Positions 6,119 through 21,911 are shown, counted from the first letter of the stretch. The stretch: DNA of 22,102 nucleotides from an uncultured archaeon (GCA_964486045.1 CAZALK010000030.1:1-22102); one strand, 5' to 3'. Numbers and translations are program-made. The notes: generated by a model not told the origin, from the sequence alone.

Positions 6119-6847
6119 CTATAAAAATGGGTAAAAGAATTGCATGAAAAACTCTTTTCCTACTACGTTTCTTTCAAGGAAATCCTCTTTTAATTTTGAA
6201 TAATCATAAGGTATGTTTTTAAAATTGATATTTAGTGAATTATCGCCAATTTCCATTGTACAAAAGGAAGTCAGAGGTTGCATTGTGATGCTAATTGACC
6301 CAGGATTCACAATCGTCTTTCTTTTCCATTTAATATATAGTTGTTCATGAGAATGACCCACCAATACAATGTCAACATCTTTAGGGTAAACAGCTATAAA
6401 TTCTTCTAAAGGTTTTTCCTGGTATATTAGAAGATTATCTTGAATTGTTGTACCGGGAGTATCATAGAAATGTGAATGTATCATCAATATTTTTTTATCA
6501 TTTATAGTTAATGTTTTAAATTGAGGAGTATTAGCTATTTTATCAATTAATTCAGTATTAAGCTGATCTACAATCCAATCGCGATGAGGACCTACCCCTT
6601 CAGGCCACTCCTCTTTTCTTTTACCTAAGACAAACATTTCATTATTTCCAATAATATTTTCAAACCTTTCATCTGCGAATATAGTTTCAGCTACTTCTTT
6701 TGGATGAGGGCCAATAGAGGTAAAATCACCTAAATTTAAAATTTTATCAGCATGAAAACTTTTTTCATTATAACGGAGAAAACTCTCTAATGCATACTTA
6801 TTAGCGTGTATATCTGATATAATAGCAAGTTTAGTATGTTCTACCAT
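6119..6847 (-). CDS. Calcineurin-like metallophosphoesterase (YfcE/MJ0936-related), paralog 1
   Basis: ISDIHAN, LGDF, GNNE, IHSH, GHSH and NPGS motifs. Confidence 0.9.
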   Translation of the reverse strand: MVEHTKLAIISDIHANKYALESFLRYNEKSFHADKILNLGDFTSIGPHPKEVAETIFADERFENIIGNNEMFVLGKRKEEWPEGVGPHRDWIVDQLNTELIDKIANTPQFKTLTINDKKILMIHSHFYDTPGTTIQDNLLIYQEKPLEEFIAVYPKDVDIVLVGHSHEQLYIKWKRKTIVNPGSISITMQPLTSFCTMEIGDNSLNINFKNIPYDYSKLKEDFLERNVVGKEFFMQFFYPFL

Positions 6848-6959
6848 ATTTTATCCCTTAAATTATAATAATATGCAAAGGATTGTTTTATATTTTAATT
6901 TTTTATAAATTAAGAAAATATCACTCCATCAATCTAAAATATTTTCTGTTTGAAATGGA

Positions 6960-7688
6960 TTATAAATATGGGTAAAAATATTTAATAAGAAATTCTCTTG
7001 CCACTACTTTATTCTTTTGATAATCCTCTTTCAATTTTGAGAAGTCATAGGGGATATTTTTAAACTCAAAATTTAGGCTAGAACCATCAATTTCTAAAAA
7101 ACAGAAGGATGTTATTGGTTTCCATGTAATACTGATTGAACCAGGATTTATAATACATTTATCTTTCCATATCAAGTACAATTGTAAGTGGGAATGCCCA
7201 ACTAATACGATATCAGCATCTTTAGGGTACATAGCTAAAAATTCTTCCAGAGTCTTTCCTTGATATACAAAAAGGTTATCTTGAATGGTTGTACCTGGAG
7301 TATCATAAAAATGTGAATGGAGCATCAATACCTTTTTCCCATTAATATCTAAAGTTTTTGATGTGGGTGTATTTTCTATTTTTTCAAGAAGATCTTTTCC
7401 AATATGGTTAGCTATCCATTCATGATGAACCATCTTTTCTCTACGCCACTCATTTTTTCTTTTTCCTAGGACAATCATTTCGTTGTTTCCAATTATATTT
7501 TCAAATCGCTTATCTGTGAAAATTGTTTGCGCCACTTCTTTTGGATTAGGACCAATAGAGGTAAAATCACCTAAATTTAAAATTTTGTCAGCTTGAAAGT
7601 TTTCTTCATTATATTGAAGAAAAGAATCTAATGCATATTTATTCGCATGAATATCCGAGATAATAGCAAGTTTAGTTTTGTTTCCCAT
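6960..7688 (-). CDS. Calcineurin-like metallophosphoesterase (YfcE/MJ0936-related), paralog 2
   Basis: Same motifs and same length (242 aa) as 6119..6847, colinear without gaps. Confidence 0.9.
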   Translation of the reverse strand: MGNKTKLAIISDIHANKYALDSFLQYNEENFQADKILNLGDFTSIGPNPKEVAQTIFTDKRFENIIGNNEMIVLGKRKNEWRREKMVHHEWIANHIGKDLLEKIENTPTSKTLDINGKKVLMLHSHFYDTPGTTIQDNLFVYQGKTLEEFLAMYPKDADIVLVGHSHLQLYLIWKDKCIINPGSISITWKPITSFCFLEIDGSSLNFEFKNIPYDFSKLKEDYQKNKVVAREFLIKYFYPYL

Positions 7689-16835: not shown

Positions 16836-16860
16836 ATCTAACAAAAATTAAATTTATTTT

Positions 16861-16867
16861 GAGGTGA
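16861..16867 (+). promoter_or_regulatory. Shine-Dalgarno GAGGTGA for the response regulator
   Basis: Strong archaeal-type SD 6 nt before ACG 16874. Confidence 0.75.
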
Positions 16868-16873
16868 CTTAAA

Positions 16874-17236
16874 ACGACTTCAATATTTATAGTCGAAGAC
16901 GATTTCTCACTGCAAAAATTATATACTAAAGTATTAAAGTTATCTGGTTTTGAGGTTATCGGTACTGCAAATAATGGATTAGATGCAGTTACAAAGCTTA
17001 AATCTTTTTCCAAAGAACCTGATGTTATTTTAATGGATCATAGAATGCCGATTAAAAATGGGATTGAAGCGACAAAAGAAATATTAAATTCTAACAATCA
17101 CTCAAAAATAATTTTTGCTAGCGCTGACAATTTGGTTAAGGAAATAGCTTTATCAATTGGAGCTTTTCAATTCATAGAAAAACCTTTTAAAATTCATGAA
17201 TTAGTAGAGAAAATTAAATATGTCTTAAGTTGTTGA
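16874..17236 (+). CDS. Stand-alone CheY-like response regulator (120 aa); start codon reads ACG
   Basis: The frame upstream of ORF-track Met 17033 reads (ACG)TSIFIVEDDFSLQKLYTKVLKLSGFEVIGTANNGLDAV...PDVILMDHRMPIKNG...IIFASA...GAFQFIEKPF. The acidic pocket EDD, phospho-Asp, Ser and KPF are all present. An in-frame TGA lies at 16865. Confidence 0.88.
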   Translation, partial: TTSIFIVEDDFSLQKLYTKVLKLSGFEVIGTANNGLDAVTKLKSFSKEPDVILMDHRMPIKNGIEATKEILNSNNHSKIIFASADNLVKEIALSIGAFQFIEKPFKIHELVEKIKYVLSC

Positions 17237-17298: not shown

Positions 17299-18258
17299 TC
17301 ATGACTTCTTCTTTATGAATTTATTTAATTTGCGAGTGTATGTTTCGATAGTCTCATAATATTGAAGTTCAGATGCTAGATCAATTATAGAATAACACAA
17401 TTCAGCAGCCCGTTCATAATCCTTATTTTTAGAGCTAATATTGACAGATTTTATTAAACTACCAAGTTTTTCTTTTTTTTTATCTATAAGTTCAACACTT
17501 TTTTGCAGAATTGTACTTACATCTGCATTATGTATGTTTATCAAAACTGTTTCAATTTCCGTAGCTAATTCATATATTCTGACAGGGTCTTCTATATCCC
17601 AATTTAAATAGATAGGTAAACTAGCGTACAATTTTAATAAATCATTATTAAATAATACCAAGACTTTGGCAGGGATATCTAAAATAGGGCGCTCGGGGTA
17701 TTTGTAAAAATTAATTCCTATAATAAAATGATCTTCAAGAGTAATAGATAAATAGATTTTGGCATTTGAGACAGATTCTATAAATTCTGTTTGAAAGTAA
17801 TACATTAAATCCTTTGCTTCTTCTGCGATTAGTATTTCCTTATCAACAAGCTCAGAAGTGCTAACTTCTACCTTTGTAGGTCCATCTTCTTTTGGAATAG
17901 ATTCTTTTTCTATTTGAGTAGATTCGTCTTCTAATTGAGTAGGTTCTTCTTCTAATTGAGTATGTGCTTCTTCTAATTGAGGATCAATTTCTTCAATTGA
18001 AAGGGACTCTTCAATTTTTTGAAAGGAAGTCTCTTTCTCACGTGGAGATTTCTTGAATTCCGTTTCTTCTTTTATTTCAGCAATTTGTTGTAAAATATTT
18101 CTTAATTCTTCTTCTAGCACAGTTTTTTGAGTTTTAAATTCCTCCAAAGAAATTGCTGATCTTGCTAATTTCCCCTTAATACCTTGTATGTCTATAACAA
18201 TCTCCTTTATCCTAATTTTTAACTCGTTGATCTTTTCTAATAATTGTTGTTCACTCAT
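17299..18258 (-). CDS. Hypothetical: N-terminal coiled coil, acidic repeat linker, UEV/E2-fold-like domain, C-terminal MIT/TPR-like helices
   Basis: 319-aa ORF 6 bp downstream of the degenerate actin-like gene, with a GGAGA SD inside that gene's end. Central IGINFYKYPERP...LPIYLNWDIEDP..IYEL pattern. The CDS is secure; the domain calls are tentative. Confidence 0.7.
   Translation of the reverse strand: MSEQQLLEKINELKIRIKEIVIDIQGIKGKLARSAISLEEFKTQKTVLEEELRNILQQIAEIKEETEFKKSPREKETSFQKIEESLSIEEIDPQLEEAHTQLEEEPTQLEDESTQIEKESIPKEDGPTKVEVSTSELVDKEILIAEEAKDLMYYFQTEFIESVSNAKIYLSITLEDHFIIGINFYKYPERPILDIPAKVLVLFNNDLLKLYASLPIYLNWDIEDPVRIYELATEIETVLINIHNADVSTILQKSVELIDKKKEKLGSLIKSVNISSKNKDYERAAELCYSIIDLASELQYYETIETYTRKLNKFIKKKS
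17898..17981. repeat. 4 x 21-bp imperfect coding tandem repeat
   Basis: tagattctttttctatttgag / tagattcgtcttctaattgag / taggttcttcttctaattgag / tatgtgcttcttctaattgag, encoding QLEEAHT-QLEEEPT-QLEDEST-QIEKES on the minus strand. Confidence 0.92.
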
Positions 18259-18264
18259 TCTATA

Positions 18265-19305
18265 CTAATCTCCGATTTCTAACTTCTTTTTTGCTAGGGA
18301 TTCAAATCCAATTGCATTAGAGAAGATTGGATCTTTAACTTTAACAATTTTATCAAGCTCAAGAGGGTCAATTAAATTTTGTTCTAAGATTAGCATTTCA
18401 ATTTCGGTCCAAAAAAGCTTCATAGCTTCCCCCGTTATAATGTAATACTCAATATTTGCATCTAATGGTAGCTTATTTAATACAGAGACTAAATTATCAA
18501 CAATTTCTTGTGAAATTTGGCGCATATAATGCTCCTTTAATTTCCCTATATTATAAGATTTTCCAGATAGAATAACATAGCCTTTATTTCCTCTAATATT
18601 TTCTAATATTTCATGAGGATTTATGATTATACCTGTTTTTTGTTGAAGTGCGATTGCGATTTTGTTTGATAAAACAAATAACGATGCGTTAGTTAAGTTA
18701 CGAGAGGCGTTTCTAATTAATTTCCCTTCAAAAATTGTTAATATTTCTGTTAACAAATCGAGTGAAATTACTATTGCGTCTATGGCTGTACCTGTTTCAG
18801 AACTAGAAATAACTTGATAATAAGTTCCATAACTTTCCGGCATTACTAATACTTGTTTGATTGAAATCTTTTTCTCCATAATTTCTTTAGTAGCGTCATT
18901 TATCACTTTAATTTTAAAATCTCCTTTTAGTTTGGAACTCAGATATTTCATTTTCTCGATACTTGTGGAAATTGGAGTCCCAATTCCTAAAATTATATCT
19001 TCTTGTTCCTCTTTTAATAATAAAGGTAAGACAGCTTTAATCAATAAAAATATATCTTCAGTCCTCTTCAAATTTCCTTGGTTCAGAACAAAATTCTTAA
19101 TATCACTTTGAGTTCTCGCTAATTCTCCTACATAGTATTCCTCTTCTTTATCCACAATAATTAAATTGTTTTCCCAACTTTTATCTGTAGTCAATTCGCC
19201 CCAACCAACAGGATTGCTGTTCCCAATAACATTTGGAATTGATAATTTTTTCTTATTAAAAGAGAATTTAATCTCTCCTCCGATATCAATCCCTATTGCT
19301 TTCAT
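18265..19305 (-). CDS. ParM/StbA-like actin-fold protein with degenerate nucleotide-binding motifs
   Basis: GIDIGGEIK, YVGELA, GTP, VMPESYG, IITGEA and SNAIGF. Colinear with 19462..20487, but the phosphate-2 motif is replaced by ISLDLLTE. Confidence 0.85.
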   Translation of the reverse strand: MKAIGIDIGGEIKFSFNKKKLSIPNVIGNSNPVGWGELTTDKSWENNLIIVDKEEEYYVGELARTQSDIKNFVLNQGNLKRTEDIFLLIKAVLPLLLKEEQEDIILGIGTPISTSIEKMKYLSSKLKGDFKIKVINDATKEIMEKKISIKQVLVMPESYGTYYQVISSSETGTAIDAIVISLDLLTEILTIFEGKLIRNASRNLTNASLFVLSNKIAIALQQKTGIIINPHEILENIRGNKGYVILSGKSYNIGKLKEHYMRQISQEIVDNLVSVLNKLPLDANIEYYIITGEAMKLFWTEIEMLILEQNLIDPLELDKIVKVKDPIFSNAIGFESLAKKKLEIGD

Positions 19306-19385
19306 GATCGAATCAATAATAATTATTTTTTTGAGTTATCTTAAAGTAAAAACCTAAAAATGCAAAACGAAATTAATAATTTGGC

Positions 19386-19393
19386 TATATAAA
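19386..19393. promoter_or_regulatory. Candidate TATA box in the divergent 156-bp intergenic region
   Basis: TATATAAA on + and TTTATATA on -, near the middle of the spacer. The AT-rich background weakens the call. Confidence 0.4.
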
Positions 19394-19461
19394 ACTATAA
19401 AATTATTACATTAAAATTAGCAGTATTTGAAAATAAAAAAGAAAATTAAAGTGAATTAAAT

Positions 19462-20487
19462 ATGATTCTACCTGTAGGAATAGATTTAGGAACATCTACA
19501 ATCAAATTATCATGCTTAGGAACAGAATTTCTAATTCCTTCGCTTATCGGGGAGGCTAACCCGGGGTGGTCTGGTGGCACTCTAGATACTTCATTAGAAA
19601 ATAATTTAGTGCTCATTGACGGGCGAGAGGAGTGGTATGTTGGCGAATTAGCTCGAACTCAATCTGAAGTAAAACGTGCTCTAGCAAGTGATGGTCAAAT
19701 GAAATCTGCTGAAGAAACCTTTTTAGCCCTAAAAGCGGCCTTATCATTAATTATTGCTGAGGATGATCAAGACGTTGTTATGGCAACAGGTGTACCAGTT
19801 GCTACTTCTTTAGAAGTTATGAAAAATTTGAGTCGAATGTTAAAAGGAAACCTCGAAATAAATGTCAGGAATGACGCAACGGAAAAAACTCAACGAATAA
19901 ATTGCAATATTACAAAATGTTTAGTTCTCCCAGAGCCTTACGGGACTTATTACTCAACTTTAAAAGAAAGAGGCGAAGATGAAGCTGTTGATACAGTATT
20001 AATTGATATTGGACATGGAAGTACGGATATTTTAACAATGTATGCTGGACGCCCAATGCGTACCGCGAGTGGCTCTTTAAGAGAGGCTACAGATACTCTT
20101 ACGAACCGTATTGCTGCTAAACTTCAGGAAAAGACCAATATGATTGTTAAACCTTTTGATTTAATGACAACAATTCAAAAACAGAAAGAAACCGTAATGT
20201 TAGGAGGACAGACGTACTCCATCAAGGCGATAAAAGATCATTTTTCAGCAGTGATCGCTAAAGTCATGGTAGATGAGGTTATGCGACTAATTGCCACATT
20301 GCCACCTGATGCATTTGTTGAATATTACATAATATGCGGCGGTGGTGCTTATTCTTTCGGAGATGCAATAAAAAAAGCTTTAATAGATGGGAAATTAGTT
20401 AGTAGTCCGGAGGCTGTTGTGATTCCAGATGATCCTGTAATGTCAAACGCAAAAGGATTCGAGTTAATTTCCAAATCTCAAAACTAA
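19462..20487 (+). CDS. ParM/StbA-like actin-fold ATPase with intact motifs
   Basis: Phosphate-1 GIDLGTSTIK, YVGELA, TGVP, connect-1 VLPEPYG (catalytic Glu position), phosphate-2 LIDIGHGSTD, adenosine ICGGGA and connect-2 DPVMSNAKGF. Confidence 0.92.
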   Translation: MILPVGIDLGTSTIKLSCLGTEFLIPSLIGEANPGWSGGTLDTSLENNLVLIDGREEWYVGELARTQSEVKRALASDGQMKSAEETFLALKAALSLIIAEDDQDVVMATGVPVATSLEVMKNLSRMLKGNLEINVRNDATEKTQRINCNITKCLVLPEPYGTYYSTLKERGEDEAVDTVLIDIGHGSTDILTMYAGRPMRTASGSLREATDTLTNRIAAKLQEKTNMIVKPFDLMTTIQKQKETVMLGGQTYSIKAIKDHFSAVIAKVMVDEVMRLIATLPPDAFVEYYIICGGGAYSFGDAIKKALIDGKLVSSPEAVVIPDDPVMSNAKGFELISKSQN

Positions 20488-20488
20488 A

Positions 20489-20507
20489 TTTTTTTTCCTA
20501 TTTTTTT
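20489..20507 (+). terminator. Candidate oligo-T terminator after the actin-like ATPase
   Basis: T8-ccta-T7 immediately after the TAA stop. Confidence 0.45.
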
Positions 20508-20630
20508 ATAATTCTTGAATTTAAAAAAAAAGATAAATAATAATTTTATCATTATCTTATAGAGATTTTAATTTTTGGATTAATAAACGATAGTAATCCC
20601 ATTATTACAATTAAAATTTGGAAGATTAAT

Positions 20631-21911
20631 GTGGATGAAAAATCACCTAAAAAAGAAATAGATGAGCTTGAAGATACTGTTAAAGGTATATTAGGTAAAT
20701 ATTCTAATGTAGATTCTTCCAGCGACATTGAAGTAGTTGATCCATTGTCGAGTCTAGATAACTTAGTAAAAGGTGCGTTAACAGAATTAACAGAATTAGA
20801 AGGAGATATATTAGATCTGATAAAACCTTCATCAGAAACAGGACTTAACAATCAAGAAAACAACGTAATTATGGCTGTTAGACGCTTTCAAAATGCGATG
20901 AAAGTAGCTTTATTTGATGGTGCCAGCAAAAGAGATTTAAATCTATTTGAAGAATCTTTTAATTTTTATATCAATGCAATTGAATTAATATCCTCTACAG
21001 GAAACCAAGGAGAAATCGAACAGGTGAAAAGTGAATTTGCTCAGGCTCTGCTTAAGATTGCTTCATTAGGCGATCAAATTAGAGATGAAGCATTTAATCC
21101 GTTTCTTGTAAAAACCTTCCAAACCTTAGCCGAGATTTATGATAGTTTTAAAGACTATAAGATAAGTATTTCATATCATACCAAAGCAGGAAATATATTG
21201 ATAAAGGACCCTAACCTCGTGATTCAAGCAAATTTAGAATATCTTTCTGCTATTATAGGTCATCTTATAATCAATGAAATCGAAAAAGCCCAAAAAATCT
21301 CATTACTCATAAAAATTAAACCTGTTAAGATGGTGGCAGATGAGATATTCTCATGTTTGAATGAAAAAAATCCTACACCTATTGATAAATCTAAAAGTAG
21401 AGTAGAAGCATTGGGGGCTCAGAGAAGAATTACAGTTAGAAATGTAGTATCTTTACTCAAAACTTTTAAATCTAAGCTAAGTGGAGCAACAAAACCTTCC
21501 CCTGTAGAAGAATTAGATGTACCCGTAGCAGCGATTCCGTTATCAAATGAGAAAGTTACAGCCATTAAAGATTCAGTTTCAAAAGGTATTCTTCAATTTC
21601 AATCGGCTCACCCGAATCTAAATGTTCCCGTTGCTCACATTGATACCAGTTCCATTGTGTCTGAATTAAAACAAGCCATTTCTGAGGGAATTAGTAAAGA
21701 AATAAGATCGGTGTCTGATGAAATAGTTGCTAAAATTTTGAAAAACATGCCTAGTGGAGGTTTGACAACCTCAAGACCAAGATCAGCTGGTCCGATTTCA
21801 GATGAAGGCGCTCCAGATATCGAAGTTGTTGAAGGCGGTTTACCTCCTGGAGAAAAACCTAAACGTCCAAAATTAGACGATATGTTGGACTCGGTAATAG
21901 TAAGTGAATAG
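20631..21911 (+). CDS. Hypothetical: acidic N-terminus, TPR/alpha-SNAP-like helical core, oligomerisation-like helix, Pro-rich tail with terminal amphipathic peptide
   Basis: 426-aa ORF with GTG start. FEESFNFYINAIEL and LAEIYDSFKDYKISISYHTKAG...ANLEYLSA helical repeats. The tail is GLPPGEKPKRPKLDDMLDSVIVSE. The CDS is secure; the domain calls are tentative. Confidence 0.7.
   Translation: MDEKSPKKEIDELEDTVKGILGKYSNVDSSSDIEVVDPLSSLDNLVKGALTELTELEGDILDLIKPSSETGLNNQENNVIMAVRRFQNAMKVALFDGASKRDLNLFEESFNFYINAIELISSTGNQGEIEQVKSEFAQALLKIASLGDQIRDEAFNPFLVKTFQTLAEIYDSFKDYKISISYHTKAGNILIKDPNLVIQANLEYLSAIIGHLIINEIEKAQKISLLIKIKPVKMVADEIFSCLNEKNPTPIDKSKSRVEALGAQRRITVRNVVSLLKTFKSKLSGATKPSPVEELDVPVAAIPLSNEKVTAIKDSVSKGILQFQSAHPNLNVPVAHIDTSSIVSELKQAISEGISKEIRSVSDEIVAKILKNMPSGGLTTSRPRSAGPISDEGAPDIEVVEGGLPPGEKPKRPKLDDMLDSVIVSE

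Follow-up and report, generated by a model that had tools for sequence, protein, structure and literature searches.

A conserved chromosomal module of two actin-like genes and two candidate adaptors in Promethearchaeia

The locus and its genomic setting

We examined a 22,102-nucleotide stretch of DNA from an uncultured archaeon (GCA_964486045.1, CAZALK010000030.1), here called the window, which is the whole 22-kb contig C30 of the 5.2-Mb genome G000. The genome belongs to the Promethearchaeia (Loki-type), and its relatives carry the labels Promethearchaeota and Helarchaeota; it was compared with 400 Asgard genomes and, at the level of its class, with 161 genomes. Between positions 17299 and 21911 lie four open reading frames (ORFs) in the order A<-B, C->D. 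Gene A (17299..18258, minus strand) encodes 319 amino acids (aa) comprising a hairpin, an acidic linker, an RWD/E2-like domain and an MIT-like bundle; gene B (18265..19305, minus strand, 346 aa) encodes a pseudo-ATPase paralogue of C; gene C (19462..20487, plus strand, 341 aa) encodes an intact ParM/Alp-type actin-fold ATPase; and gene D (20631..21911, plus strand, 426 aa, GTG start) encodes a proposed ParR-replacing adaptor of C. Genes A and B are separated by 6 bp, B and C by a divergent, AT-rich spacer of 156 bp (19306..19461) without an iteron array, and C and D by a spacer of 143 bp (20488..20630, plus strand) that holds a T8 (20489-20496) and a T7 tract. The T tracts after C are a possible terminator, and transcription of D may be separate or lower. 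An earlier sequence-only reading of this DNA had described the four ORFs, the gaps of 6 and 143 bp and the oligo-T tract as we found them; it had also called the module symmetric, which is true of gene position and not of the products, A and D not being homologous to each other.

No small ribbon-helix-helix (RHH) gene was found among or adjoining A-D in the ORFs of the window, no intergenic repeat family of iteron or parC type was found in the window, and no plasmid or viral genes flank the module there or in the related loci examined. The sole repeat family in the window is a 21-nt coding repeat within the acidic linker of A. Apparent inverted repeats between B and C were rejected, as they correspond to the paralogy of these two genes; the spacers of the module are not conserved across orthologous loci, and promoter and terminator scans, made with bacterial models, gave results at chance level. 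The flanks are chromosomal in character (DUF362, FtsJ-like, RadB-like, TrkA and PAS kinase genes), the tetranucleotide distance of the contig lies at the 52nd percentile with typical GC, and the same neighbourhood was found on a twin contig of 184 kb. Scans with B and C for viral relatives, which reach close relatives only, gave no match, and the best plasmid matches of the actin were about 27% identical (plasmid ParMs, about 26%). Because of the typical composition, the 184-kb twin contig and the deletion scars in a related genome described below, the contig is native to the genome and the module has elsewhere been lost as a unit. The sequence-only reading had proposed a chromosomal, non-ParMRC system free of RHH genes, iteron arrays and plasmid or viral genes, and these data are in agreement with it; neither a mobile element nor a nearby ParR gene of RHH type was seen.

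The actin C, its degenerate paralogue B and the predicted B-A complex

C matched Pfam ALP_N (65.7 bits) and MreB-like_C (44.3 bits), and its phosphate-1, connect-1, phosphate-2, adenosine and connect-2 motifs are intact. Its best solved relatives were pCBH ParM (PDB profile E 2e-16) and Dh-cParM1, and it fell below the cut-off both for PF00022 Actin (18.8 bits, cut-off 27) and for NF052678, the FcmB/CorM family (34.9 bits, cut-off 300). The C family was present in 68/400 Asgard genomes, being near-universal in several families (29/31, 12/12, 6/7 and 5/5 genomes); it forms one Asgard clade (support 100/99), which a long branch separates from the other ParM-like Alps, shares 25-30% identity with other ParM relatives, and carries only the database labels "ParM/StbA family" or hypothetical. 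At least five separate PF00022 genes lie elsewhere in G000, as do ubiquitin-like genes and a weak Vps23-core match. A third actin paralogue was seen in the Heimdall-group family f18 (L066:6360-7463, L072:6401-7462), with PVCYG vs PEPYG; the loss of its catalytic Glu marks it, as far as sequence can tell, as a second, independent pseudo-ATPase, and by eye it adjoins a row of genes with a MoxR-like AAA gene. A divergent member of the clade, P0077 (L094:5001-6038), adjoins rve integrase and GvpL/F genes on a metagenome contig, a setting that makes transfer outside the module possible.

B passes Pfam ALP_N and is 39% identical to C, and it is without the phosphate-1, phosphate-2 and adenosine motifs (DIG-GxIK, SLDL-LTE and TGEA vs DLGTSTIK, DIGHGSTD and GGGA in C). 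Each phosphate loop has a one-residue deletion, the D-x-G of phosphate-2 is gone and TGE stands instead of GGG; this loss was present in all 12/12 B sequences compared. The first Asp and the connect-1 Glu are kept, and residual nucleotide binding by B is possible. The B orthologues of family f4 are degenerate in another way, having lost the catalytic Glu, and the B and C subtrees mirror each other within the monophyletic Asgard clade; on these two grounds B would be an old duplicate kept inactive.

Segment analysis divided B into regions of different fate. Subdomain IB is the best kept (49% B-C identity), and the groove helix end that is conserved in C has been lost (14% B-C, 33% B-B identity). 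Residues 297-321 of B form the only segment that is more conserved in B than in C (59% vs 54%), and they are 22% alike to C; here residues 299-317 (18355..18411, minus strand) make up a B-specific acidic helix, W-x-EIE-x3-LE, which follows the adenosine motif and is the predicted A-binding site.

The 5' end of B is unusual in its own right. Most B orthologues are without an in-frame ATG, GTG or TTG and appear to start with ATT, ATA or ATC, usually after a Shine-Dalgarno-like GGTG(A) motif (5' ends in this start survey: L001, L002, L009, L049, L077, L096, L097, L012, L013, L040, L042). In several orthologues an in-frame stop excludes any canonical start, and gene callers truncate these genes; in the window, B has an ATG one codon downstream of the ATT-type start position. 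Non-canonical starts would fit a low, cap-like stoichiometry of B, the copy in the window having its ATG.

The structure model of A (pLDDT 80) showed the order hairpin, linker, RWD, MIT-like bundle. Residues 1-68 (18055..18258, minus strand) form a helical hairpin, the predicted B-binding element (K14, V21, L52, R53, L56, I59), and residues 69-133 (17860..18054, minus strand) a disordered acidic linker (pLDDT <50), which holds the 21-nt (7-aa) repeat and varies from about 10 to 65 aa across orthologues. Residues 134-246 (17521..17859, minus strand) have a non-catalytic E2/RWD fold with a YPxxP motif and no conserved Cys, and residues 253-319 (17302..17502, minus strand) form an MIT/TPR-like three-helix bundle.

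The prediction for B with A was run on the full-length proteins with alignments of our own making, so the pass mark is a rough one here; among reference pairs, 58/80 solved and 2/110 mismatched ones reach it. The B-A model passed with 0.71, vs 0.07 for the best control. The runs shared at least 24% of contacts, with a partner pLDDT of at least 67. The confident interface placed A residues 11-60 on B residues 300-322 and included the invariant A residues K14, L52 and L56 as well as the B-specific acidic helix. PDB searches found no complex similar to this one, so the model is less likely to reproduce a known structure. On the model, the N-terminal hairpin of A very probably grips B, in keeping with the role of adaptor of the pseudo-actin that had been assigned to A. 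Paralogues of A that adjoin B (A'; L036:5345-6604, L076:3634-4866, L077:3882-5153, L096:1752-2993) keep the hairpin and exchange the C-terminal domains, which argues that the hairpin is the part facing B; in A' the hairpin and the first RWD helix are fused to an unrelated beta-rich and helical portion of about 330 aa that has no Pfam family.

Matches of the domains of A are at the level of shape. The hairpin resembles the steadiness box of ESCRT-I and the CdvA hairpin at an rmsd of about 1 A (6vme, rmsd 1.1 A; 2p22, Z 9.7; CdvA, Z 10.7), tied with many unrelated hairpins, as this is a common shape, and the PF09454 (steadiness box) HMM had no match on A. For residues 134-246 VIA returned the VPS37A UEV (Z 9.9, rmsd 2.8, 101 residues aligned), E2 (Z 9.3) and the GCN2 RWD (Z 9.1), and for residues 253-319 the calpain-7 MIT (Z 10.5) and the archaeal Vps4 MIT 2w2u (Z 9.8, rmsd 0.9); the latter bundle is a generic helical shape and the Z scores for helical bundles lie in the generic range. 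The nearest kin of the RWD domain of A is a class-wide (Loki-wide) family of tandem-RWD proteins with a zinc finger, not Vps23. Two such proteins (G000:C1:892641-894314, L061:2590-3969) have RWD/E2-like repeats in tandem and, at the C-terminus, a Cys/His zinc finger, a FANCL-like layout; this class-wide protein is the likely source of the RWD domain of A, and the A-like protein of family f4 retains more RWD-like repeats and a zinc finger. A could not be placed in any family by Pfam, NCBIfam or per-member scans, and an ESM Atlas feature search was blank for its residues 135-319. Histone-fold and coiled-coil matches on A were rejected as below the cut-off.

Gene D, its terminal peptide and the distribution of the module

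The structure model of D (pLDDT 74) was all-helical. Its N-terminal 70 residues are acidic (7 K/R, 18 D/E), the first 38 being poorly conserved, and residues 72-285 (20844..21485, plus strand) form a SNAP/TPR-like helical solenoid that is presumed to bind cargo. The solenoid best matched alpha-/gamma-SNAP (Foldseek E 6e-4 to alpha-SNAP; Atlas 0.88), the VIA match to gamma-SNAP (Z 14.7, rmsd 3.6, 190 residues aligned) being near the generic range for helical repeats; Pfam SNAP matched 0/37 D members, and D, too, was left without a family by the Pfam, NCBIfam and per-member scans. Residues 337-372 (21639..21746, plus strand) are a conserved amphipathic helix with a hydrophobic period of about 3.9 residues, a candidate for a right-handed, VASP-TD-like oligomerisation coil; the sole PDB match was weak (E 1.9) and fell on an N-terminal tag of a recombinant construct, a tag that we take to be VASP-TD. 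A Pro/Gly linker separates this helix from the tail, residues 395-426 (21813..21908, plus strand; P-x-I...RPKLDDMLDSVIVSE-COOH), which is the most conserved part of D (0.88 in segment conservation) and a candidate actin-groove binder. The UEV-, MIT/SNAP- and VASP-TD-like modules of the sequence-only reading were thereby upheld in part: A is E2/RWD- and MIT-like and D is SNAP-like at the level of fold, and the likeness to VASP-TD is weak.

An HMM of the D tail matched the C-terminal end of a 230-aa protein that is unrelated to D in its other parts; its gene lies immediately 3' of the same actin in a Heimdall-group family, and hhalign of the two tails gave 91.6% (E 8e-7). This tail-bearing adaptor was present in 12/12 genomes of its family and was not found in the Promethearchaeia class. 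In a third lineage (L095) a D-type tail stands on a similar small protein two genes from the actin; one terminal peptide accompanies the C clade on different scaffolds. The HMM of the Heimdall tail ranked D first in the G000 proteome, at an E of only 0.16, and the profile of the RHH-like Heimdall adaptor had no match in G000; an arcadin-2 HMM matched D weakly (E 0.069). Since its tail is shared with a ParR-like adaptor of the same actin, D is probably a replacement for ParR, in which, by analogy, a protein-binding solenoid would stand where the DNA-binding domain was. The phrase "without ParR" in the sequence-only reading is right in that a DNA-binding RHH domain is missing, and it requires correction in that D carries the tail of the ParR-like adaptor found beside the same actin elsewhere. 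Binding of such tails in an actin groove has precedents in arcadin-2 (PMC5173319) and CorR (10.1101/2025.06.27.661541).

Other genes were noted beside these actins. In family f18 (L065:3599-7310) the actin gene is followed by those for the RHH-like adaptor with the tail, for a helical Zn-ribbon protein of 372 aa and for a small GTPase, and in family f13 a small GTPase lies directly 5' of the actin (L054:5380-6138). RHH assignments for small genes beside outgroup Alps (L080, L081) were unconfirmed by HMM or PDB.

Orthologues of A, B and D were found only in the Promethearchaeia class, where C-family actins occur in 14/161 genomes and the module is patchy. A and D orthologues track the actins, and D is present in nearly all 14 carriers; elsewhere there was only one divergent case of D and two broken remnants. 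The arrangement A<-B, C->D recurs in about a dozen other assemblies (L002, L035-L040, L049, L075-L077, L096, L097), sometimes with inserted genes, some of them between C and D, or with a second A-like gene; it is not due to chance, and the synteny and co-occurrence that the sequence-only reading had named as a check are in place. No B was found in G127; G281 has both actins elsewhere and an A-like gene directly 5' of D. The congener G229 retains remnants of D (121 bp) and A (94 bp), 83-84% identical, around an inserted metabolic cassette and within the same flanks as in the window. Scars of this kind were located at L055:7270-10430 (G229, with a thiolase in the cassette) and L056:7908-9232 (G226).

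All four genes are under purifying selection (dN/dS: A 0.23, B 0.15, C 0.11, D 0.24). Relaxed selection within the genus was rejected, as the values obtained with a near strain (dN/dS 0.25-0.34) are no different from those of flanking genes of comparable divergence. In the comparison with the near-identical strain L075, 4-11% of synonymous sites are changed in A, B and D, vs at most 1% in C and most flanking genes, which suggests that the accessory genes have recently undergone recombination or diversifying exchange.

Two features of the window lie outside the module. The response-regulator gene adjoining A (16859-17236) seems longer than the 67-aa ORF called from its ATG, its frame being open upstream to a GGTGA near 16864, and it may have a non-canonical start. 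Two tandem metallophosphoesterase paralogues of 242 aa lie at 6119-7688.

Proposed mechanism and rival explanations

We propose that the module is a domesticated machine of ParM/ParR type, now a chromosomal cytoskeletal tether with a protein cargo, and we give this proposal about an even chance. C would form an ATP-driven polar filament, as we infer from its intact motifs and its family. D would oligomerise through its right-handed coil and so present several flexible C-terminal tails, which would dock in the groove between subdomains IA and IIA of C as do the tails of ParR, CorR and arcadin-2. From the homology of the tails it is fairly likely that D would track, stabilise or trim filament ends and couple them to the cargo of its solenoid. 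Because subdomain IB is kept and the groove is lost, B could dock on an end of C and accept neither a further subunit nor a D tail; we somewhat favour B as an Arp-like non-hydrolysing subunit that would block extension at that end and serve as a cap or seed. A, bound on the IIA helix of B, would use its RWD and MIT-like domains to anchor this end to a protein target.

The closest precedent is CorMR of multicellular cyanobacteria (10.1101/2025.06.27.661541; PDB 9rmi; NCBIfam FcmB), a chromosomal, vertically kept, ParM-derived actin with an adaptor, CorR, that no longer binds DNA, retains both the RHH core and, for the pocket of the actin, a C-terminal helix, and has gained a membrane helix. Both systems have a chromosomal ParM-derived actin, and D holds a candidate for the C-terminal actin-pocket element; however, C is independent in origin (see its NF052678 score), D has a SNAP-like solenoid and no RHH domain, and CorMR is without a pseudo-ATPase paralogue or an RWD adaptor. 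With type II ParMRC systems (R1, pSK41, pCBH) and cParMR (Dh-cParM1, Cb-cParM; PMC12270681) the module shares the ALP_N fold, the intact motifs of C and an adaptor built of a putative oligomer helix, linker and terminal peptide, but it has no RHH ParR, parC or mobility, it is separated by a long branch, and it has a second, dead actin with its own adaptor. The crenactin-arcadin-2 system (PMC5173319) is likewise an archaeal actin cluster in which the partner binds the groove by a conserved C-terminal peptide behind an unconserved linker; there the actin is eukaryote-like, whereas C is ParM-like, and the link in sequence between D and arcadin-2 is not significant. Lokiactin and the Asgard ARPs (PMC9834061) are also chromosomal actin-fold proteins of Asgard archaea, but C belongs to a different branch and the true actins lie elsewhere in G000. 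By analogy, then, the module would work like ParM/ParR and most like CorMR; it falls outside ParMRC, nor does it belong with CorMR, Lokiactin or ESCRT-I.

In dynactin (Arp11/Arp1) and in Arp2/3, adaptors hold a degenerate paralogue of actin that serves as cap or seed of a filament, and Ena/VASP is an oligomer whose tails, borne on flexible linkers, bind actin. These are analogies only, B deriving from the ParM-like Asgard clade and not from actin or Arp.

Several points weigh against the tether. Binding of a tail in the groove can also mean depolymerisation in place of tracking. The subdomains of B and C were assigned from the order of motifs, not from a fold of C. The strand-helix-helix core of the Heimdall adaptor is ParR-like by eye only, its Pfam and PDB searches being blank, and in the majority of Asgard genomes with C no adaptor was detected close to it. 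The module occurs in split form in family f4 and in the Helarchaeota-type genome G126, where C-D and B-A lie on different contigs, and it is dispensable, the actins being absent from 53/53 congeners.

The filament could instead be linked to membrane remodelling of ESCRT type or to ubiquitin; A would then be a permuted subunit of ESCRT-I-like kind, and D would act in membrane traffic in the manner of a SNAP. A does join three shapes known from ESCRT proteins (steadiness-box-like hairpin, UEV-like and MIT-like domains), its Cys-less E2 fold and hairpin recalling the UEV-Vps23/ESCRT-I proteins of Asgard archaea (10.1101/2023.07.25.550441; PMC10936438) and FANCL-like tandem-RWD proteins; the best fold matches of D are SNAPs, and the genome has the ubiquitin-like genes and weak Vps23-core match noted above. 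Yet the domain order of A is reversed with respect to UEV - coiled coil - steadiness box, with an MIT-like bundle added, the PF09454 HMM is silent, in the predicted complex the hairpin is already engaged with B, and the RWD domain has its nearest kin among the zinc-finger proteins. No ESCRT, ubiquitin or AAA gene was found at the module loci examined and no clear transmembrane segment in the four proteins, and with the generic Z scores of the helical bundles we consider this explanation quite improbable.

To the same degree improbable is a purely regulatory module without tethering, in which D would sequester or depolymerise the actin as arcadin-2 does, and B-A would be a sink for monomers or would modulate the filament as a co-polymer. 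It would suit the depolymerisation of their actins by arcadin-2 and Cb-cParR, the possible separate transcription of D and the weak arcadin-2 match, but it leaves the conserved solenoid and coil of D and the RWD domain of A unexplained. Moreover, oligomeric tails usually give avid end binding, as in ParR and VASP, which counts against it.

Segregation of a chromosome or replicon by protein bridging, in which the C filament would push DNA through B-A or D and an unlinked DNA-binding protein, has again only a slim chance. It draws on the ParM ancestry of C, on the RHH-like adaptors that persist beside the same actin in Heimdall-group genomes and on RWD as a linker module of kinetochores, for which Asgard RWD-like domains are a proposed source (PMC6601020). 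A Zwint cluster did appear among weak Atlas rows, but with a TM of 0.31, below significance; A and D are both net acidic with no DNA-binding domain in either, there is no parC, and a module essential to the chromosome would be unlikely to have been lost from most lineages, as this one has.

If A-B and C-D were pairs with separate functions, adjacent only through local duplication of C to B, this would account for the different contigs in G126, for the failure to find B in G127 and for the divergent layout, a common relic of duplication; nearly every carrier, however, has both pairs, G229 has lost the two of them in one deletion, G281 joins an A-like gene to D, and B keeps the C-like IB segment, so we regard this as very unlikely. 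That the locus is a partition cassette of a plasmid or provirus, or that its contig was mis-binned (the window being an entire 22-kb contig, with a bin contamination of 7.8% and no congener having the actin), is largely refuted and of negligible probability, given the composition, the twin contig, the housekeeping flanks in other loci, the A and D scars among the same flanking genes in a congener and the distant plasmid and missing close viral matches.

The module, considered as a tether or otherwise, is real, conserved and apparently undescribed in print; no published description of the C clade was found in literature coverage that excluded most subscription journals. We know of no other prokaryotic Alp system with a pseudo-ATPase paralogue and a division of labour among RWD, MIT-like and SNAP-like adaptors. 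A wider claim, which we hold to be rather unlikely, is that of a second Asgard actin cytoskeleton, derived from a plasmid-type ParM independently of Lokiactin, in which a dead subunit would play the part of an Arp, a multivalent factor would serve the ends as VASP does and an RWD/MIT adaptor would couple filament ends to ESCRT/ubiquitin or chromatin; if true, it would be a prokaryotic parallel of end attachment as in dynactin or at kinetochores. The four small proteins, without clear membrane segments and with two interfaces predicted at residue level, are amenable to work in vitro. Work on the Asgard cytoskeleton has centred on Lokiactin and ARPs, and the C clade is a separate, ParM-derived actin lineage. 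It would be a second case beside CorMR of a repurposed partition motor, in which an apparent ParR-like earlier state persists in Heimdall-group genomes, and to which the Promethearchaeia have added a pseudo-ATPase paralogue dedicated to it, along with adaptors made up of RWD, MIT-like and SNAP-like folds.

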